Assembly: GCA_029977805.1 (NCBI GenBank)
Contig: JAPOKE010000001.1
Location: forward strand, 1-52,937
Reading direction: 5' to 3'
Length of the DNA stretch: 52,937 nucleotides
DNA from: Phenylobacterium parvum
GTDB taxonomy: Bacteria > Pseudomonadota > Alphaproteobacteria > Caulobacterales > Caulobacteraceae
Part shown: positions 1 through 52,937 of the stretch, in pieces
How positions within the stretch are numbered: the first letter of the stretch is position 1
Layout: every line of letters starts with the position of its first letter
Notes under the pieces: model-generated
Told to the model about the DNA's origin: nothing
Database searches by the model: none
Seen by the model: only the letters and a program-made list of their open reading frames with translations
Made by a program: the position numbers and the translations under genes

Positions 1-2006
1 AGACCCTCGACCGCCGGGTTGACGACGACGAGGATACGCGCCGCAAGGCCGCCAACGCCGCCGGCAAGCCGATCAGCCGGGCCAAGGGCGCGACCCAGCG
101 CCGCGAGGGCCGCCTCACCATCCAGGCCGTGGCCGGGGACGACGAGGGCGCCGTCGAGCGGATGCGTTCGCTGGCCTCCGTCCGCCGGGCCCGGGAGCGC
201 GAGCGCGAAAAGCGCAAGGGCGGGGTCCAGGAACAGGCCCGCGTCGCCCGCGAGGTGGTGATCCCCGACGTCATCACCGTCGCCGAGCTGTCCAACCGGA
301 TGGCCACCCGCGGCGTGGACGTCATCAAGTTCCTGATGCGCCAGGGCATGATGCTGAAGATCAACGACGTGATCGACAGCGACACGGCCGAGCTCATCGC
401 CACCGAATTCGGCCACACGGTGAAGCGCGTGTCCGACTCCGACGTCGAGGAAGGCTTCCTGGGCGCCGAGGACGTGGACGAGAACATGGAGCCCCGCGCC
501 CCCGTGGTGGCGGTCATGGGCCATGTCGACCACGGCAAGACCTCGCTGCTGGACGCCCTCCGCCTCACCGACGTGGCGGCCGGAGAGCACGGCGGCATCA
601 CCCAGCACATCGGCGCCTACCAGGTGAAGCTGCCCAACGGCCAGAAGGTGACCTTCCTGGACACCCCCGGCCACGCCGCCTTCACCGCCATGCGGGCCCG
701 CGGCGCCGAGGTGACGGACATCGTCGTCCTGGTCGTTGCGGCCGACGACGGGGTCATGCCCCAGACCATCGAGGCCATCCAGCACGCCCGGGCGGCGAGG
801 ACGCCGATCATCGTGGCCGTCAACAAGATGGACAAGCCGGACTCCAACCCGACGCGCGTCATCAACGAGCTGCTGCAGCACGAGGTGGTGGCCGAGAGCC
901 TGGGCGGCGAAACCCAGATCATCGAGGTCTCGGCCCTCAAGAAGACCGGCCTGGAGGACCTCATCGAGGCCATCCTCCTGCAGTCCGAGGTGCTTGAGCT
1001 GAAGGCCAACCCGGACCGCACGGGCGAGGGCGTGGTCATCGAGTCCAAGATCGACCGCGGCCGCGGCGCCGTCTCGACCGTCCTGGTCAAGCGCGGCACC
1101 CTGAAGCGGGGCGACATCGTCGTGGCCGGCGCCAACTTCGGCCGCGTCCGCGCCCTGCTGAACGAGCGGGACGAGCAGGTTCCCTCGGCCGGGCCGTCCG
1201 AGCCGGTCGAGATCCTCGGCCTGGACGGCGCGCCGTCGCCGGGCGAGGCCTTCGCCGTCGTGGACTCCGAGGCCCGCGCCCGCGAGCTGACCGAGTACCG
1301 GATCCGCGTGAAGCGCGAGAAGGCCGGCGCCCCCGTGGGCGGCGGCGTGTCCATGGCCGACTTCATGGCCAAGATGCAGGACAAGAAGATCTCGGAGATG
1401 CCGGTCATCATCAAGGCCGACGTCCAGGGCTCCGCCGAGGCCATCGTGGGCTCGCTGGACAAGCTGGCCACGGACGAAGTCCGCGCCCGCATCATCCTGT
1501 CCGGCGCCGGGGCGATCAGCGAGAGCGACGTCATGCTGGCCAAGGGTTCGGGCGCGCCCATCCTGGGCTTCAACGTCCGCGCCACCAGCCAGGCCCGCCA
1601 GCTCGCCGAGCGCGAGGGCGTGGAGATCCGCTACTACGCGATCATCTACGACCTGCTCGACGACGTTAAGGGCGTCATGTCCGGCCTGCTGGCCCCCGAG
1701 CAGAGGGAAACCTTCCTCGGCAACGCCCGGGTCCTGCAGGTGTTCGACATCACCCGCGTGGGCAAGGTGGCCGGCTGCCGCGTCACCGAGGGCGTGGTGC
1801 GCCGCGGCGCCCGGGTCCGGATCGTCCGCAACGACATCGTCGTCCTCGAGCTCGGGGTCCTGCAGACCCTCAAGCGCTTCAAGGACGAGGTGGCCGAGGT
1901 CGGCAACGGGGTCGAGTGCGGCATGGCCTTCCAGGGCTTCCAGGACATCCAGGAAGGCGACATCATCGAGTGCTTCACCATCGAAGAGGTCAAGCGCAGC
2001 CTCTAG
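1..2006 (+). CDS. infB: Translation initiation factor IF-2 (5' truncated by window edge)
   Basis: Frame of ORF 129..2006 is open back to position 3. GTPase motifs [22 protein letters not shown] and the IF-2 C-terminal domains are present. Confidence 0.98.
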
Positions 2007-7524: not shown

Positions 7525-7571
7525 CATGTCCGGTCCGCCGGGTTAAGGCGGGACAGGGTCCGCAGTTCACC

Positions 7572-7713
7572 CAGGCGTCGCCGCCCCGGAAGGGGAGCTA
7601 AACCTGCCAGCACAGACTTTTCCGCATCTGACGCTCTCCTTCCGCGCCAGGTCGAAGCCGGCGACCCCGACACCGCCCAATGCGGGCAAGGCGCAGCACG
7701 AGGACGCGTGATG
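7572..7713 (+). promoter_or_regulatory. Candidate cis-regulatory RNA switch (5' leader of the DUF2087 gene)
   Basis: Mutually exclusive pairings: 7587-7598 with 7633-7644 (12 bp, one G.U), versus hairpin 7572-7606 plus 7631-7648 pairing with 7690-7709 over the RBS and start. Confidence 0.55.
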
Positions 7714-45241: not shown

Positions 45242-45844
45242 ATGCGCCTGAAGCGCCTTGTCCTCGCCGCCAGCCTCGTCCTGGCCGCGGGTCTCGCCGC
45301 CTGCACCACCGCCACGCCCTACCAGCCCCTCCTGGCCAGCGCGCCGGGGCTTGGGGGCTATTCGGACGTGCGGATCGAGCCCGGGCGCTACCGGGTGACC
45401 TTCACGGGCAACAGCCTGACCTCGCGGGAGACCGTCGAGCTGTACCTGGCCTACCGGGCGGCGGAGCTGACCCTGGCGAACGGCTACGACACCTTCACCC
45501 TCGTGACCCGGGACACCGACCGGAAGACCTCGACCCGGCTTGAGCCGGGGCCGACGCCCCTGCCCTACTGGAGCCCCTACTGGCGCTACTACGGGCCGTA
45601 TGGCTGGCGGGTCTACGACCCCTGGATGGACAGCCCCTTCGGCCGCCCGTCCATGGATGTCTCCACGGTGGAGAGGTTCACCGCCTCGGCCGAGGTCGTG
45701 CTGGGCAAGGGCCCCAAGCGAGCGGACGATCCCGAGACCTTCGACGCCCGCGCCGTCCTGGAGAACCTCGGACCCCGGATCCAGCGGCCCGAGGACGGTC
45801 GGGTGAAGCCTGCGGTCAGCCCCGCGCCAGGACCGAAGTCCTGA
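45242..45844 (+). CDS. Lipoprotein, CC0125/CC1285-like family
   Basis: Lipobox LAAC; TPYQP, GYSDVRIE..RYRVTFTGN, YRAAELTL..GYD.F. Confidence 0.8.
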   Translation: MRLKRLVLAASLVLAAGLAACTTATPYQPLLASAPGLGGYSDVRIEPGRYRVTFTGNSLTSRETVELYLAYRAAELTLANGYDTFTLVTRDTDRKTSTRLEPGPTPLPYWSPYWRYYGPYGWRVYDPWMDSPFGRPSMDVSTVERFTASAEVVLGKGPKRADDPETFDARAVLENLGPRIQRPEDGRVKPAVSPAPGPKS

Positions 45845-46976
45845 AGCTGACGCCGGCGGCGTCGGACAGACGTCCGGCCAGGCCCGGCCCGAGGGCGGCC
45901 CCGGCGGTCCAGATCCCGGGCGGAAGGGACGGCGCCTCCGAGGCGGCGGCGAGGATCTCGGCGACAATGCGCGAAGTGGCCAGGTAGGCCGGGTCGCCGC
46001 GCGCCCCGATCTCACAGGCGATGCGGCGGCCGGACTCATCGATGCCGATCACCATGATTTCGAAATAGCCCTTCTCCAGCTCGGCGATGGGCGGGCCGTC
46101 GCCGGGCAGGGGCGCCGTGGCCGCCAGGGGCGAGCCCCCGTCCGACACCTCCTCCTCGTCAATCACGGCCAGTTCCTCGTAGCGGAAGTCCCGCCCCCAC
46201 CGGTGGCCCTGGAGGAGGTTCGACCGGTGGATGTTCTTGGTGTTGATGGCCGCCATCAGGATGGGGCCGACGGTGCGGGCGATGTCGGGGTCGAAGCGGA
46301 CGCTCTCCCCGTCCGGCTGCTCGGGCCCGCGGAAGCCGGGGGTGAGCGCGAAGGGGTCCCGGAGCAGGGCGGCGACCTCGGGGGCGCTGATCATCCGGGA
46401 GATGGTCTCCCGGGCGGTGGCCGCCGTGCCGCCCGACAGGGCGCCCTTCATCCGCATCAGCCGGGACCGGACCTCGGCGGCGGGGCGGCCGTACCGTGCC
46501 AGGGCCAGTTCCTGGACCTCCATCACGCCCAGCTCCCAGACCGTGGAGTCGAAGCCGCAGGACAGCAGGGCGGTGACGCCGGCCTGCCGCGCGGGGGCGT
46601 CGAAGCGGCGGATGACCTCGGCCATCCAGTGGGGCTCGCCGCACATGTCGACATAGCCTGCGCCCTCGCGCAGGCAGGCCTCGATCACCGGGGTTCCATA
46701 GAGCTGGTAGGGACCCGCGGCGGAGAGGACGAAGCGGGCGCGGCGCGCCATCTCGTCCAGCGACCGGGGATCGTTCACGTCGGCCAGGATCAGGGGCAGG
46801 CGTGGCCAGCCCAGGCGTTCGCGCAGGCGGGCGAGGCCGGGACCGTCGCGACCGGCGAGGCCCCAGCGCAGCTTGCCGCCGTCGCCATAGGTCTCCGCCA
46901 GGCGGCGGGCGATCAGACGGCCGGTGAAACCGGTCGCCCCGAAGATCACGAAGTCGAGTTCAGCCGTCCTGGCCAA
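45816..46976 (-). CDS. Saccharopine dehydrogenase-like / trans-acting enoyl reductase family oxidoreductase (copy 2)
   Basis: TTG start; GATGFTG, AGR, GPYQLYG, YVDMCGE, SCGFDS, SGGTAA. Confidence 0.88.
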   Translation of the reverse strand: MARTAELDFVIFGATGFTGRLIARRLAETYGDGGKLRWGLAGRDGPGLARLRERLGWPRLPLILADVNDPRSLDEMARRARFVLSAAGPYQLYGTPVIEACLREGAGYVDMCGEPHWMAEVIRRFDAPARQAGVTALLSCGFDSTVWELGVMEVQELALARYGRPAAEVRSRLMRMKGALSGGTAATARETISRMISAPEVAALLRDPFALTPGFRGPEQPDGESVRFDPDIARTVGPILMAAINTKNIHRSNLLQGHRWGRDFRYEELAVIDEEEVSDGGSPLAATAPLPGDGPPIAELEKGYFEIMVIGIDESGRRIACEIGARGDPAYLATSRIVAEILAAASEAPSLPPGIWTAGAALGPGLAGRLSDAAGVSFRTSVLARG

Positions 46977-47034
46977 GGCCGCCCCCCGGTCGATGTCCGG
47001 GGAAACAGTCTGGCGGGGCGGGGCTTACAGAGGG

Positions 47035-48198
47035 TTAACCCGCGTTATCCGTCTCGTCGGCGAAGACCAGGCCGGCATGGCCTGACAGGCGCTCGATCAG
47101 GGGAACGCCCAGGGCCGCCCCCGGCGTCCAGACCCCGCCCGGGGTCGCCGGGGTGCGGATCAGCTGGATGGCGGTCTCGGCCATCATCTTCGAGGTCGAG
47201 CCATAGCCGGGGTCGCGGTCACCCTTGACCGAGACCCGCACCTTGCGGCCGTCCGCCGCGATGCCGACGAACAGGATGTCGTAGAAGCCGTTCTCGCGCT
47301 CCTCGAGGCTCGGCCCCTCGCCGGGCTTGGGCGCGCCGGCGCCGCCAAGGTCGGTGAAGGAGGTGCTGGCGCCCGGCGCGGTGATGGACATCTCGTCGTA
47401 GGTGAAATCCGTTCCCCAGGGGTGGCCCTGCAGGAAATTCGAGCGGTGGACGTTCTTGGTGTTGATCGCCGCCATCATGAAGGGGCCGACCTCGGCGCCG
47501 ACGTCCTCGTCGAAGGCCGTCTCGTTCCCCGGAGGCTGGGGCGGTCCGGTGAAGCCGGGGGTCAGGGCGAAGGGATTGACCATCAGCTGGAAGAGGGCGG
47601 GGTTGCGGCGGATGGCGTCCATGGTGGCCGCGCCGCTGGCGGCGGTGCCGCCCGACAGGCCGCCCCGCATGTTCCGGACCCGGCCCTTGACCCGCGGGAC
47701 AGGCCCGCCCAGGCGACGCTTCGCGGTTTCCTCGGCGAACAGGACGCCGAGCTCGAAAGGAATGGAGTCGAAGCCGCAGGAGAAGAGGATCCGCGCGCCG
47801 GAGGCCCGGGCGGCCTCGTGGTGCGCCTCGACCATCTCGGCCATCCAGTTGGATTCGCCGCAGAGGTCCACATAGTCGGTCCCGGCCCGGACGCAGGCGG
47901 CCACGAGTTCCGAGCCGTAGAGCTGGTAGGGGCCGACGGTCGTGACGATGACCCGGGCGCGCCGGACCATGGCGTCCAGCTGGGCCGGGTCGGCGGCGTC
48001 GCAGACGACGAGGGGGGTCGAGGCCGGGGCGCCGACCAGGTCGCGGACCTCCGCCAGCTTGGCGGCCGAGCGGCCGGCCATGGCCCAGGAGACCCCGCCG
48101 CCCGGCGGCTGGGTGCGGGCCAGGTGCTCGGCGACGAGCCGTCCCGTGAATCCGGTGGCGCCGTAGACGATGATGTCGAATTCCGCGTCGGCCCGCAT
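47035..48198 (-). CDS. Saccharopine dehydrogenase-like oxidoreductase (copy 1)
   Basis: GGGAGG RBS; GATGFTG, GPYQLYG, YVDLCGE, SCGFDSIP, DPGYGSTSKM. Confidence 0.9.
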   Translation of the reverse strand: MRADAEFDIIVYGATGFTGRLVAEHLARTQPPGGGVSWAMAGRSAAKLAEVRDLVGAPASTPLVVCDAADPAQLDAMVRRARVIVTTVGPYQLYGSELVAACVRAGTDYVDLCGESNWMAEMVEAHHEAARASGARILFSCGFDSIPFELGVLFAEETAKRRLGGPVPRVKGRVRNMRGGLSGGTAASGAATMDAIRRNPALFQLMVNPFALTPGFTGPPQPPGNETAFDEDVGAEVGPFMMAAINTKNVHRSNFLQGHPWGTDFTYDEMSITAPGASTSFTDLGGAGAPKPGEGPSLEERENGFYDILFVGIAADGRKVRVSVKGDRDPGYGSTSKMMAETAIQLIRTPATPGGVWTPGAALGVPLIERLSGHAGLVFADETDNAG

Positions 48199-48244: not shown

Positions 48245-48874
48245 TCAGCCAAGCCGCCGCCGGGCCAGCCAGACGGTGTGTCCGCCGCAGTCCGGATCCT
48301 CGGGCCTGAACTCCAGGACGTCGAAGCCCTCCGCCGAGAGGCGGCGCCGGTATTCGGCGGGGGAGAGGCTGGCGTGGTGCAGGGGGTCGCCGCCGAACTC
48401 GCCCAGGACGGTCCCCGCGTCCGGACCCGAGGTGAACATCAGGACGGCGCCGGGCGCGGCGTGGGCGCCCAGGACGGAGAAGAAGGCCTCCTGGTCCGCG
48501 GCGGTCAGGTGGAAGAGGCTGTCCCAGGCGAGGAGGCCGTCATAGGTCGCCGCCAGCGCAAGGCCGCGCATGTCCGCGCAGATCCAGGTCCCGGCGGGAA
48601 ACCGCTCGCGGGCCCGTTCGATTGCAGGCGCGGAGGCGTCCACCCCCGTGACCTCGAACCCCTCGCCAAGCAGGCGAGCGCCGAGCGGCTGGCCCGTCCC
48701 ACAGCCAAGGTCGAGGACCCGACCGGCCGGAGGAAGGAGGTCCATGAACCGGGCCATCCAGCCGGCCTCGACCCGCAGGTCCGCCCCGCGCACCCGGTCC
48801 CAGAGGGCGGCGTGGCGCGTATAGAGCCCGGTGACGTCGGCGGCGGCCCGGGCGACCGGGTCCTCCGGCCTCAC
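48245..48874 (-). CDS. Class I SAM-dependent methyltransferase
   Basis: VLDLGCGTG, GVDAS, ADMR, AWDSLFHL; GTG start overlaps the upstream TGA (GTGA). Confidence 0.88.
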   Translation of the reverse strand: MRPEDPVARAAADVTGLYTRHAALWDRVRGADLRVEAGWMARFMDLLPPAGRVLDLGCGTGQPLGARLLGEGFEVTGVDASAPAIERARERFPAGTWICADMRGLALAATYDGLLAWDSLFHLTAADQEAFFSVLGAHAAPGAVLMFTSGPDAGTVLGEFGGDPLHHASLSPAEYRRRLSAEGFDVLEFRPEDPDCGGHTVWLARRRLG

Positions 48875-49341
48875 GGCCCGCGGCGCGGGGTTGCGCCCCG
48901 TCCCCGTCCGCCCTCGGCCACGCCCTCGGCGCGCAGCCGGTCCCCGAGGGACCGGCCCGCCAGCCGGCAGTCCGCGGCCACGCGGTCCCAGGTCCGCCCC
49001 CGGGAAACGCAGTCCACCCGCCTTCCGGCGGCGATTCGCGCCAGGGCCGCCCGGGCCTCGCGCCCGCCGGGCTCCCTGAGCTCGGGGGCGTGGAAGTCCG
49101 CGAGGCGCACCTCCACCCAGTCTGCGCCCCGCCGGGGCCCCACGGCGACGCAGAGGGAATCGCCGTCCCCGACATGCACCACCGGCCCTGAGAAGCGCTC
49201 GCCCCGGGCGAGGCTTGCGGGCATGGGCCCCTTCTGCGGCACGGCGCGGCAGGGATCGGCCAGGACCGGCCCGGCCAGGACAAGGAAGAGGCAGGATGTG
49301 GCGGCGGCGAGGAAGGAAGACAGCGGAGAGCGACGATTCAT
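48871..49341 (-). CDS. Exported thermonuclease (SNase-like) family protein
   Basis: Signal peptide ending in VLA-D; VGDGDSL, VRLADFHAPE, WDRVAA motifs. Confidence 0.82.
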   Translation of the reverse strand: MNRRSPLSSFLAAATSCLFLVLAGPVLADPCRAVPQKGPMPASLARGERFSGPVVHVGDGDSLCVAVGPRRGADWVEVRLADFHAPELREPGGREARAALARIAAGRRVDCVSRGRTWDRVAADCRLAGRSLGDRLRAEGVAEGGRGRGATPRRGP

Positions 49342-49420
49342 CAACCCTGCGCGCCCTATCCTGCCGCCGGGCGCTGATCTGCGCCCGGCCCAGCATATGA
49401 TCCCTGCGGAGTCCCGGTCC

Positions 49421-50269
49421 ATGCGCACCCTGCCCCTCATCCTCGCCGCCCTTGTCCTGGCCGGGTGCAGCCTGGAGGCCGCCACGCCGGCCGCGCCGGC
49501 GGCGGCGAAGGCCCCTGAATTCCCGCCGGCCCTGATACGCGAATACGTGGCGGGCATCAAAGCCCGCTGCGGGTCCGGGGCCGCCGGGGGCGTCTCGGCC
49601 GCGGACGTCGTCCGGAAGGGGGAGAGCCCCGCCGGCGCGATCTACGGGATCGACCTGGAGCGGATCTGCCCCGGCGCCGAAACCAGGGGGTTCTGCGGCA
49701 CCGGCGGCTGCGAGAACCCTGCCTTCCGGGTGGGCTCGGACGGGACGGCGGCCCGACTGGTGGAGGGCGTCAACCGGGGCTGGGAGGTTTCAAGGGACGG
49801 AAAGACCCTCATTGTGGCGGTTCACGGGGGACAGTGCGGCCTGCCCGGGCCCGTCCCCTGTGATGAGAAGATCGAGATCGCCACCGGCAAGGTCCTGGGC
49901 CACGAGAGCCGGGGAAAGCCGGTCACCGTTCCCGGCGCCGAGACCCGGCTGACCGAGGCCTACTGCCTGGGCCTGCATGTCGCCCTGGCGGGGAAGGCCG
50001 CCGACATCCTCGGCAAGGACAGCGACCTCGCCCAGGCCGGGTCGGTCTTCGCCGCCGGCAAGATGCTGGACGCAAAGCCCAGGATCAAAGACCCCGCCTT
50101 CCAGCGCGAGATGAAGAACGGCGCCTTCAGCGTCGACCATTACCTGACCCTGGGGGCCCTGACCGACAAGATCCCCGAGGCGGAGCAGCTCGGGCCCCGC
50201 TTCAAGGCGGGCTCGCCCCTGTTCGACGACTGGATCGCCTGCGCCGCGGCCTATCCGCTGAAGGGCTGA
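49421..50269 (+). CDS. Hypothetical lipoprotein (Cys-rich CGTGGC domain plus YCLG domain), paralog 1
   Basis: TATGAT -10-like element and GGAG upstream; lipobox LAGC; C-terminal domain shared with the next two genes. Confidence 0.8.
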   Translation: MRTLPLILAALVLAGCSLEAATPAAPAAAKAPEFPPALIREYVAGIKARCGSGAAGGVSAADVVRKGESPAGAIYGIDLERICPGAETRGFCGTGGCENPAFRVGSDGTAARLVEGVNRGWEVSRDGKTLIVAVHGGQCGLPGPVPCDEKIEIATGKVLGHESRGKPVTVPGAETRLTEAYCLGLHVALAGKAADILGKDSDLAQAGSVFAAGKMLDAKPRIKDPAFQREMKNGAFSVDHYLTLGALTDKIPEAEQLGPRFKAGSPLFDDWIACAAAYPLKG

Positions 50270-50381
50270 GACGGCTCCAGGCTTTACTCACCCCAGGATT
50301 GGGCCGACTGTGCCTTGGGCCTTGACGTCGGCGGAACCGGCCGACCCCGGGCGCCGGACGCCACGAGACAGGAGCCATGGA

Positions 50382-50888
50382 ATGCGAGTCCTCCCCCTGA
50401 TCCTCTTCGGGCTGGTGTGCGCAGGCTGCAGCCCCGGAACGCCCGACAAGCCGCCTGCGGCGGCGCCCGCCAACGACCTTGCCCGAGACCTCGGTCGCGA
50501 AACCATAGTCCAGGCGAACGCCGGTGAGCTGACGGAAGGCTACTGCCTGGGGGTAACCACCGTCCTCGCCCCCATGATCGTCCAGGCCGTGGGTCCCGAT
50601 AGCGCCGTCTTCAAGGATGCGATGACCTATCTCGAACGACGGGAAGCGAGCCTCCTCGCCGCAAAGGGGGTGCAAGGGCTGGACGAACTGGAAGCGGCGG
50701 ACCCCGCGCTCTTCGGGGAGATCGACCGCGGGACCCGATGGGCGTTTGCTCAGGTCGCAAGTTCGGCGGGCATCGTCCAGGCGCTCACCGGGCCAGAACG
50801 CGAAAAGATGGGCGCGAACCTGAAGTCAGGCGCACCGCCCTTCGATACCTGGGCGCAGTGCAGGAAGACCTATCCCGCCGGAGGCTGA
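50382..50888 (+). CDS. Hypothetical lipoprotein (YCLG domain), paralog 2
   Basis: AGGAG RBS; MRVLPLILFGLVCAGC lipobox; EGYCLG...PPFDTWAQCRKTYP. Confidence 0.8.
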   Translation: MRVLPLILFGLVCAGCSPGTPDKPPAAAPANDLARDLGRETIVQANAGELTEGYCLGVTTVLAPMIVQAVGPDSAVFKDAMTYLERREASLLAAKGVQGLDELEAADPALFGEIDRGTRWAFAQVASSAGIVQALTGPEREKMGANLKSGAPPFDTWAQCRKTYPAGG

Positions 50889-51027
50889 CGAGGGCCGGCG
50901 ATGCGCCGCCGCCGCCGAGCCGGCTCGAAGCCGCGGGGAACCGGTTCCGCTGGCGCCGGGGTCTTGACCTGATCCGTTTTCAAGGGCGGCATGAGGCGAC
51001 AGCCGGTTTCGGCGTGGAGTCCTCGGA

Positions 51028-51519
51028 ATGCGCATCACCCCCCTCCTGCTGGCCGCAGTGGTCTTGGTCGGCTGTGCCCCCGGGGCGCCCGAGACAGCCG
51101 AGGCCGCGACGCCTCAGGTCCAGGCGGCGAGCAGTGCCGCAAAAGACGTCGCGGCGAAGGCAGGCGAGCCTTCCGACGCCTACTGCCTGGGCGTCCAGAA
51201 CGCGGTCATGAACATCCTCGCCCTGGCCTTAGGCCTCGACAGCGACCTGGCGCGGGCCTCGGCGGTCTCTCTCGCAGACCGGGAACATGACTTTGCGCAG
51301 GCGAGGGGCTTGCAGTCCCTCGCGGAGCTGGAGGATCCCGACGTCATCGCCGAGGAGCAGCGCGGGAGCGCCTGGGCCTTGGAGGTCTCGGGGCTCAAGC
51401 CTCTCCCCACGGTCCTGAGCGAGGCCCAGAAGGAACGAGTTCGTCAGGACCATGAGGCCCGCAAGCCTCCGTTCGACACCTGGACCCGATGCGCGGAGCT
51501 CTATCCGGTGAAGGGCTGA
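51028..51519 (+). CDS. Hypothetical lipoprotein (YCLG domain), paralog 3
   Basis: GGAG RBS; MRITPLLLAAVVLVGC lipobox; DAYCLG...PPFDTWTRCAELYP. Confidence 0.8.
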   Translation: MRITPLLLAAVVLVGCAPGAPETAEAATPQVQAASSAAKDVAAKAGEPSDAYCLGVQNAVMNILALALGLDSDLARASAVSLADREHDFAQARGLQSLAELEDPDVIAEEQRGSAWALEVSGLKPLPTVLSEAQKERVRQDHEARKPPFDTWTRCAELYPVKG

Positions 51520-51528
51520 GGCGCCGGC

Positions 51529-52937
51529 TCAGCTCCGGAGGCCCGGCGGGTCGAAGACCGCCAGGGCCCGGCGGGCGGCGGGCGCGTCGCCGGTGATGGA
51601 CAGGGCCCCCGAGGCCTCCAGCTCCGAAAGCCGGGCCTGGCCGCCCAGGACCCGGGCGAGATCCGCCCAGCGGACGGCAAGGCGGGTCGTGGCCCCTGCG
51701 CCGTCCGTGGCGACGCTGACGCTGTTGCGAACGTGAAGGCCGGCGGCCCCGGCGTCCGGGAAGTCGAAGCCGAGGTGCAGGTCGATCCCCTCCGCCCGGG
51801 CCGGGTCGACCATCACCCGCAGGAGGTGCAGGGCCTCGCGCGGCGGGCGCGCCGCCAGCTGGGCCGGGCGCAGGCGATGCTCGGACAGGCGCGACAGGTC
51901 CAGGGCGCCCTCCAGCTCCAGGGCCCGGGTCAGGCACCAGTTGCGGATGTTGGCCGCCGAGGTCCCCTGGGCGATGGCGCGCAGGACGCCGGCAAGCTGG
52001 GCCCTGTCCGCGGGCTCGGCCTCCGGGCGCGCAACCAGCCAGGAGGCCAGCTCCAGGGCCCAGCGCAGGTCGCCTTCGCCCTGGGCGGACTGCGCCCGGG
52101 CGCGGACCTCCCCTGCGCCGCCGAAACCCTCCACCAGCCGCCGCGCCCGCTCGGCGGGGGGCAGGACGAAGAGCTTGCCCGGTTCGCCGTCGAACCAGCC
52201 GCGCAGGCCGGCGGCGATCTGCCGGACGTGGTGCTCGGCCACGCCGTAGAACTCGCTGGTCAGGTAGTCGTCGTCGCAGGCCGCGGGCAGGCGCACCTCA
52301 TGGGCCAGGGCGTCGGCGGTACTTCCCCGGTTGAGTCCGCGCACGGTCTGGTCCCACAGGAACTGGATGGAGTCGCGGTAGCGCGTCACGCGGGCGGCGA
52401 TCCCGTCAGCCCCGGAGATCGGCGGGCCGTGGGCGCCCAGGAGGTGCTCGGCGCCCAGGGACAGGATGTGGTCGATCCCCGCCAGCAGGACCTGCGGGTC
52501 GCGGTACTCCTCGCCCCGGATCGGGAAGATGTTGAACAGGGTCGGCCAGACCAGGTTCTGCACGCAGGTCGCTAGCTCGGGGAACCAGAAGGTGACGCTG
52601 TCGTCGGCGTCGGAGGGCGCGTGGTGGATCTCCACCGCCAGGCCCGCCAGGGTCAGGCGCTCGCCGCCCCGGAAGCTCTGGGTCAGGGGGACATGGCCGG
52701 GGGTGAAGGGGGCGTGCTCGGGGTTGCGGAAGTGCAGGCCGAGCCCCTCGTTGACCAGGGCGTCGGGGCCTTCGGGCGGCAGGCGCAGGCCGAACTGGTG
52801 GATCAGGCCCCGGGAATAGGCCGGGGCGATCTCGCCCGAGGTCCGGGCCAGGTTCAGGGGGATGCGCTCGTGCCCGAGGATGGGCAGGTCGGCGCGGCCC
52901 GCATCCGCCAGGGCCGCCGTCGTCCCGCCGATGTAGT
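51529..52937 (-). CDS. Alkyl/aryl sulfatase, SdsA1-like metallo-beta-lactamase fold (5' end beyond window)
   Basis: Frame is open to the window edge (YIGG...); NIFPIRGEEYRDP, LLGAHGPPI, EFYG, GWFDG, LRWALEL, RNWCL, SCP2-like C-terminus. Confidence 0.88.
   Translation of the reverse strand, partial: YIGGTTAALADAGRADLPILGHERIPLNLARTSGEIAPAYSRGLIHQFGLRLPPEGPDALVNEGLGLHFRNPEHAPFTPGHVPLTQSFRGGERLTLAGLAVEIHHAPSDADDSVTFWFPELATCVQNLVWPTLFNIFPIRGEEYRDPQVLLAGIDHILSLGAEHLLGAHGPPISGADGIAARVTRYRDSIQFLWDQTVRGLNRGSTADALAHEVRLPAACDDDYLTSEFYGVAEHHVRQIAAGLRGWFDGEPGKLFVLPPAERARRLVEGFGGAGEVRARAQSAQGEGDLRWALELASWLVARPEAEPADRAQLAGVLRAIAQGTSAANIRNWCLTRALELEGALDLSRLSEHRLRPAQLAARPPREALHLLRVMVDPARAEGIDLHLGFDFPDAGAAGLHVRNSVSVATDGAGATTRLAVRWADLARVLGGQARLSELEASGALSITGDAPAARRALAVFDPPGLRS

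Follow-up and report, generated by a model that had tools for sequence, protein, structure and literature searches.

A previously unrecognised lipoprotein domain in an optional cassette of one to three genes in freshwater Phenylobacterium

Three tandem genes, here called A, B and C, lie towards the end of positions 1 to 52,937 of contig JAPOKE010000001.1, from the Phenylobacterium parvum assembly GCA_029977805.1; this 52,937-nt stretch, the whole of the DNA analysed, is referred to below as the window. All three are read from the + strand, and their translations match the earlier description. Gene A (49421..50269, +) encodes a 282-aa lipoprotein made up of a signal peptide with a lipobox (Cys16), an Ala/Pro tether, an N-terminal CGxGGC beta domain, a linker and a C-terminal helical domain that we call the YCLG domain. 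Gene B (50382..50888, +; 168 aa) carries only a lipobox, a tether and the YCLG domain (Cys55, Cys160), as does gene C (51028..51519, +; 163 aa), whose domain (Cys53, Cys155) is acidic, with a net charge of -8. The N-termini of A, B and C (MRTLPLIL, MRVLPLIL and MRITPLLL) lead into the lipoboxes LAGC, CAGC and LVGC, respectively, with Cys16 as the lipobox cysteine in all three, and a lipobox is also present in the five orthologues checked out of five. The Pfam LPAM_1 model matched only below threshold when A, B and C were scanned. From these features the three products are predicted to be signal peptidase II lipoproteins, anchored in the membrane.

The original prediction, made from the sequence of the window, had described three tandem lipoproteins with a lipobox, an Ala/Pro tether and a common C-terminal domain. 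This anatomy holds: the open reading frames (ORFs), the lipoboxes, the BLASTP alignments and the sites of the 11-mer TACTGCCTGGG all agree, the 11-mer lying at exactly 49961, 50541 and 51181 with no other + strand copy in the window. The layout in which the tether leads straight to the shared domain is correct for B and C, but not for A, where an extra six-cysteine domain of ~135 aa lies between the two. BLASTP aligned B with C at 35% identity over 168 aa (E 2e-33), A with C at 33% (E 1e-14) and A with B at 27% (E 2e-10), and because of these E-values the sequences are taken to be paralogous far beyond chance. A hidden Markov model (HMM) of the three domains found no fourth copy in the source assembly, which is 2.29 Mb long and 86% complete (next best match, E 0.62).

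The shared domain, which in A spans 49946..50266 (+; about residues 176-282, with Cys182 and Cys274), is ~105-120 aa long and carries two cysteines in the pattern YCLG...FxxWxxCxxxYP. An AlphaFold2 model of B, built on a 17-row alignment, is a helical bundle (predicted template modelling score 0.72; predicted local distance difference test 88-96 at residues 41-120), with helices at residues 52-70, 75-95, 100-106, 108-128, 137-149 and 154-163. Cys55 falls in the first of these and Cys160 in the last, and for this reason a disulfide clamp between them is plausible; a disulfide-stapled helical bundle is accordingly the fold modelled for B and predicted for the products of all three genes. The invariant columns of the domain (Y, C, L, G, G, S, G, F, W, C and P) are structural, and the domain alignment shows no catalytic or metal-binding motif among them. 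Across paralogues that are only 22-37% identical, both cysteines persist, as do the motif residues W, F and P.

The YCLG domain had been put forward as an unrecognised one, and this claim stands. The domain matched no family in Pfam, NCBIfam, PHROGs or PADLOC, no PDB entry by sequence or by fold, and none among viral folds; no characterised family was thus recovered from the databases searched, while copy number was found to vary from zero to three. DUF6491 was rejected as a candidate: the full-length C protein scores 18.5 bits against it in Pfam, vs a cut-off of 27.5, and the domain alone gives no match at E<=10. Within the genus Phenylobacterium, the domain is present in 5 of 197 genomes. 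A balanced, domain-only profile did not find it beyond the genus in 400 genomes of the order, where six weak matches proved to be histidine-kinase helices, nor was it found in 400 genomes of the class, the two weak matches there lying outside the domain. When 1.84 billion representative proteins were searched with HMMER, unindexed and with a profile weighted toward C, four matches came back: one protein each of the C, B and A types and one spurious repeat protein. Sensitivity for a fast-evolving domain of 110 aa limits what these negatives say about distant homologues. Among homologues with a name, the closest are listed at NCBI as "hypothetical proteins" of Phenylobacterium parvum, and no paper on A, B or C was found in the open-access literature searched. 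Within reach of these searches the domain appears to be a genuine orphan family, new and previously unrecognised, but narrow, as it belongs to one freshwater Phenylobacterium clade.

The N-terminal domain of A (49517..49915, +; about residues 33-165) is of another kind. It is modelled as one helix with antiparallel beta sheets, and this beta-rich domain carries six cysteines in the motifs CGTGGC and HGGQCG...PC. It belongs to a larger family of alphaproteobacterial secreted proteins of the pattern CGxGGC...HG..CG...C, with which it has the CGxGGC and HG..CG..G...C motifs in common; an alignment of 10 rows has 12 invariant columns. These relatives consist of one or two domains, bear FG-GAP-like DxxGDG motifs and, unlike A, lack a YCLG domain. 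The three top Foldseek matches of the A model are entries of the Tsi1-Tse1 complex, over ~110 columns, and the VIA alignment to Tsi1 covers model residues 58-167; these matches are weak and tied with ordinary beta-propeller blades. The domain is described as partially beta-propeller-like and Tsi1-like as a prediction from the model, and we do not assign A to the Tsi1 family: A does not match Tsi1 at the sequence level in PDB at E<=10, and neither gene flanking the cassette encodes an amidase. One CGxGGC relative (L051) is a fusion with a peptidoglycan-binding domain. At that locus the CGxxxC-type domain lies in a 542-codon frame (L051:640-2265) together with the peptidoglycan-binding domain, and a second peptidoglycan-binding paralogue adjoins it at 2-436 (-). 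Exported proteins of ~310 aa (L032, L033, L035, L037-L040), several with a lipobox, seem to contain two CGxGGC-type domains; a number of Phenylobacterium genomes have them, at least once directly after pdxJ, and they bear no family name. The nearest Atlas lead with a family name for the CGxGGC proteins, PF27665 UCP028175 (score 0.86, rank 23), is an unconfirmed lead only.

The cassette is an optional accessory locus of zero to three genes between two otherwise adjacent genes. On its left, a 79-nt divergent intergenic region (49342..49420) separates A from the gene of a 156-aa secreted protein with GDGDS and RLADFHAPE motifs (48871..49341, -). On its right (51520..51531), the stop codons of C and of a convergent alkyl sulfatase gene are 9 nt apart, and the junction sequence is identical in the genomes G076, G196 and G192. 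The sulfatase gene (51529..52937, -) encodes SdsA1-like dimerisation and C-terminal domains (Pfam PF14863, E 3e-29; PF14864, E 9e-10) and runs off the window. Among 16 close relatives, defined by an alkyl sulfatase that is nearly identical where it could be matched (78-100%), 5 sites are filled and 11 are empty. In the ten empty sites compared base by base, the secreted-protein gene begins 1 nt past the stop codon of the sulfatase gene and shares its strand, and in the eleventh (G181) the two genes are likewise adjacent. The secreted protein is conserved in all 16 genomes and coupled to the sulfatase in those with an empty site; the cassette of all five carriers is oriented opposite to this flanking pair.

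The content of the filled sites varies. G000 has A, B and C; G076 has A and C; G196 has a broken A followed by B and C; and G179 and G192 have A, which also stands alone on a metagenome contig (L018). Single-copy carriers hold only the two-domain gene A. In G196, A is broken by an internal deletion with a change of frame, and the identical broken form is found in the independent protein record P0028. Orthologues of A are 56-86% identical in G076, G179 and G192, that of B is 83% identical in G196 and absent from G076, and those of C are 80-96% identical. The copy-number variation that had been named as support for a new family is thus found, and presence is patchy. Furthermore, the left flank gene of the carriers compared here begins with a common ATGAATCGTCG (MNRR) 5' end, unseen in the empty-site genomes; because of this remodelled end, and because four carriers have an identical right junction, the sequences point to one original insertion. 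In more distant members of the genus the left flank gene was not seen near the sulfatase, so that the direction of gain or loss is not fixed by an outgroup. No recombinase or other mobility gene lies between or beside the flanks in the five carriers, and no integrase or transposase family was matched among the window ORFs scanned.

In a tree of pnp, the four carriers in which this gene was matched do not fall together, G196 grouping instead with four genomes whose site is empty (99/99), and a single clade of carriers is rejected (approximately unbiased test, p 1.9e-11), although this is one gene within a recombining group and the tree is indicative only. The cassette or the empty allele may thus have moved laterally through its flanks. 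Between G000 and G076, the domain of C shows no synonymous and one non-synonymous difference in 116 codons, vs a dS of 0.17-0.76 for other genes common to both genomes. A run of 305 identical nucleotides spans this domain, the longest in 60,454 aligned bases with 84.6% mean identity; a run of 270 nt at an unrelated locus indicates that such blocks are not unique to C. Movement of the cassette between sister species is likely on these comparisons. Divergent allele blocks were also seen on contigs of several studies, at 48343-48502 in the methyltransferase gene and at 51865-52340 in the alkyl sulfatase gene, and suggest that the cassette is flanked left and right by DNA that recombines often.

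The three genes are fixed types. Domain identity is low between paralogues (A-B 22-30%, A-C 21-36%, B-C 33-37%) and high within orthologue groups (C-C 79-99%, B-B 87% for one pair, A-A 52-95%), and in the tree of the domain long stems (0.75-1.07 changes per column) lead to three groups whose inner branches are short, a shape that we read as burst divergence followed by stasis. The "highly variable middle" of the original prediction is therefore a property of the paralogues (21-37% identity), not of the orthologue groups (52-99%). The ratio of non-synonymous to synonymous changes (dN/dS, Nei-Gojobori) comes to 0.34-0.50 between orthologue domains of A, 0.29 between those of B and 0.21 between those of C, from six domain comparisons (C vs G076 has no synonymous change), compared with 0.06-0.23 in neighbouring genes; the domain values are probably overestimated at this GC content. 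A, B and C are thus under purifying but relaxed selection. Of the outcome that the original prediction had named as refuting it, an invariant array under purifying selection, this is one half; the presence of the array is not invariant.

Alleles within species are nearly monomorphic. The exact B sequence was found on 93 contigs, and a variant that differs at one residue on 45; for C, the exact sequence and a one-residue variant were each found on 38. The six other members of the B cluster differ by 1-2 residues. With clusters defined at 90% identity by construction and up to 15 members listed for each, the alleles listed differ in the domain by 0-7 residues (0-4 for C), often in common recombinant blocks, and one chimaeric B differs by 15. 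The B-C stretch differs by at most 2.1% between contigs of four independent studies, and only three domain types were found in all searches.

In layout only, the cassette resembles an orphan-immunity array: it is tandem, toxin-less, accessory and laterally exchanged, with a copy number of 0-3. Other features of such arrays are missing: within the reach of the searches no toxin-linked homologue was found, nor was a linked recombinase or strain-level diversification. The DUF576 tandem-like lipoproteins of Staphylococcus aureus (Lpl/Csa/Til1), among which Til1 confers immunity to TslA, a lipase of the type VII secretion system, are likewise paralogous lipoproteins in tandem, variable in copy number and able to stand without a toxin gene (PMC10730906). 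However, A, B and C have no DUF576 match in Pfam scans, and Til1 genes vary highly in number and sequence between strains, with a toxin possible at three of four loci (PMC10730906), in contrast to the three fixed types of this cassette, which has a toxin at none of its loci. Tsi1, the periplasmic immunity protein to the amidase Tse1 of Pseudomonas aeruginosa's type VI secretion system (T6SS), is small, disulfide-bonded and exported, with a partial beta-propeller, and is the top, though weak, Foldseek match of A. But Tsi1 is bicistronic with its toxin (PMC3391265), A is lipid-anchored by prediction and has a helical domain fused on, and the shared YCLG domain has no likeness to Tsi1. The Bacteroidales AID/rAID loci are also toxin-less gene arrays in accessory loci with lateral gain; rAID genes differ in being homologous to cognate immunity genes, recombinase-linked and prone to accumulate non-synonymous changes (PMC12247911), none of which was found here.

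Tai4/Rap proteins, which are helical and confer immunity to amidases, and the lysozyme inhibitors LprI/MliC/PliI are small exported inhibitors as well, often disulfide-bonded. They are absent from the Foldseek and VIA matches listed for both models and have no Pfam match. Of the inhibitor types that the original prediction had named, Tai/Rap1a, Tsi and LprI, only Tsi1 therefore appears among the matches listed, weakly and for the A model.

Known orphan immunity genes have relatives beside cognate toxins. Neither the window nor any of the carrier loci yielded a cognate toxin, no YCLG homologue stands beside a toxin or outside the clade among the 1.84 billion representative proteins, and no toxin family occurs among the neighbours of eight CGxGGC homologue loci. 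VipB is found in none of the five carriers, one of them a complete genome, and RHS repeats are absent from all five. Each carrier has a VirB4 gene and 1-4 TPS-domain matches elsewhere, none tied to the cassette locus. In G076 (L116-L120) these matches lie within open frames of 2,200-4,300 codons; the loci of G000 are L101, L108 and L114, and one of these VirB4/TPS loci also has long identical runs between the two genomes. The original prediction is thus supported in part: copy variation, patchiness, lipoprotein anatomy and a new domain fit a conflict cassette, but orphan immunity stays putative, and neither a cognate toxin nor a toxin-linked homologue was found.

The reading that we prefer, tentatively and at somewhat less than an even chance, is that A, B and C are non-enzymatic envelope shields of fixed specificity, encoded by a laterally exchanged cassette, which bind and neutralise foreign proteins. 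The two-domain gene A would have come first, and B and C would be tandem duplicates minus the beta domain, which diverged fast to new specificities and then became fixed. With Ser, Ala or Asn at the +2 residue, the lipoproteins would be anchored in the outer membrane, the domain facing the periplasm; sorting by this residue is an Escherichia coli rule. The cassette and its pieces may have spread among sister species by homologous recombination via the conserved flanks. The bound partner would be a hostile protein, such as a cell-wall or membrane enzyme injected by a competitor or predator, or a phage protein. We favour such shields because proteins of this sort typically combine gain and loss and lateral spread with a burst of divergence and with small domains that are tethered and disulfide-bonded. 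Counting for them, with the same reserve, are the lack of a catalytic motif, the accessory status, the carriers that do not form a clade, the 305-nt run, the long stems, the weak Tsi1 match, the fusion to a peptidoglycan-binding domain and the precedent of Til1. Two results weigh on the other side, namely that no target of the proteins was found and that no toxin-linked homologue turned up in the searches. A bolder version strikes us as doubtful: a home-grown defence, in which a new immunity fold, born in one freshwater clade and fused to a Tsi1-like propeller, budded free helical modules with new specificities that swept gene by gene between sister species, as orphan immunity with no cognate toxin-immunity pair anywhere, guarding T6SS-less oligotrophs from competitors, predators or phages.

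The proteins could instead be accessory factors that modulate envelope machinery of the cell itself, binding for example a TonB-dependent receptor, a porin or a peptidoglycan enzyme from the periplasm and tuning it to the niche with no foreign target. Purifying selection and near-monomorphic alleles agree with this, as do the missing toxin link and a chromosomal site on the dnaA contig with no integrase or transposase match in the ORFs scanned. However, 11 of the 16 close relatives do without the cassette, A is broken in one species and B missing in another, and the paralogues have diverged deeply and rapidly, which is more typical of conflict genes; we hold this alternative to be unlikely, though a serious one. 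Ligand-binding surface or periplasmic proteins, capturing a nutrient, metal or polymer in aid of the flanking alkyl sulfatase or the secreted nuclease-like protein, seem quite improbable.

Slightly more improbable again is a weakly selected passenger, whose genes drift in and out by recombination with little effect on fitness. The decay of A in one species, in the same broken form as in P0028, domain dN/dS values above those of housekeeping neighbours and common recombination across the region would suit it, but dN/dS is well below 1 across the orthologue domain comparisons of A, B and C (0.21-0.50 in six of seven, the seventh, C vs G076, having no synonymous change), and the two cysteines and the W, F and P residues have been kept across the divergent paralogues. 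Finally, the variable-binder half of the original prediction, an antigenic-variation cassette whose middle diversifies between strains, is largely refuted and very improbable, since despite paralogues of 21-37% identity and some recombinant mosaic alleles (P0080, A alleles) there are three fixed groups under purifying selection, with B letter-identical on 93 contigs and B-C near-identical across four studies.

The rest of the window is core chromosome, with infB, truB, pnp, dnaA, dapB, metK, lnt and fur among the Pfam matches, and its GC content is about 0.7; in 1-kb bins the cassette looks no different. All or part of the stretch is present in 20 sequencing runs, most of them freshwater, estuary, wastewater or aquatic metagenomes. 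Searches with the left-flank 156-aa protein gave nothing in Pfam, NCBIfam or PDB, also when a 7-row alignment was used; we presume from its motifs (GDGDS, RLADF(H/Y)APE, GRTWDR) a likeness to staphylococcal-nuclease-like proteins, with His/Tyr where the Ca-binding Asp would be expected. A conserved stretch, cttgacct...gggcggcatg, lies ~35-65 nt upstream of C in three species (window 50964-50995, +; L014, L015); it may be C's own promoter, and a scan for E. coli-type promoters did not call it. The interval that separates the secreted-protein gene from the methyltransferase gene also varies between species (L014:11163-15241, L016, L017, L056-L066): a gene of ~112 aa comes and goes, and we take other variable genes there to be mechanosensitive-channel-like and adenylate-cyclase-like. 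Further left (45816-48198, -) are two tandem paralogous oxidoreductases, about 45% identical and presumably saccharopine-dehydrogenase-like, where the G179 locus has one. A COG3860 RNA motif (RF02940, 76.8 bits) occurs at 7556-7609 (+), just after pnp and before a DUF2087 coding stretch. The alkyl sulfatase of G181 (L100, G181:C272, about 1385-2784) is split into two frames near residue 240, by a frameshift or an assembly error.

In conclusion, the locus is a clean, small case of gene birth, in which the empty, one-, two- and three-gene states, a pseudogene and transfer between species are all visible. Without a target, A, B and C amount to one more lineage-specific lipoprotein family. If a defensive role proves true, they would add a new inhibitor fold, and would mean that planktonic bacteria lacking a T6SS evolve envelope shields of their own rather than borrow the immunity genes of their attackers.
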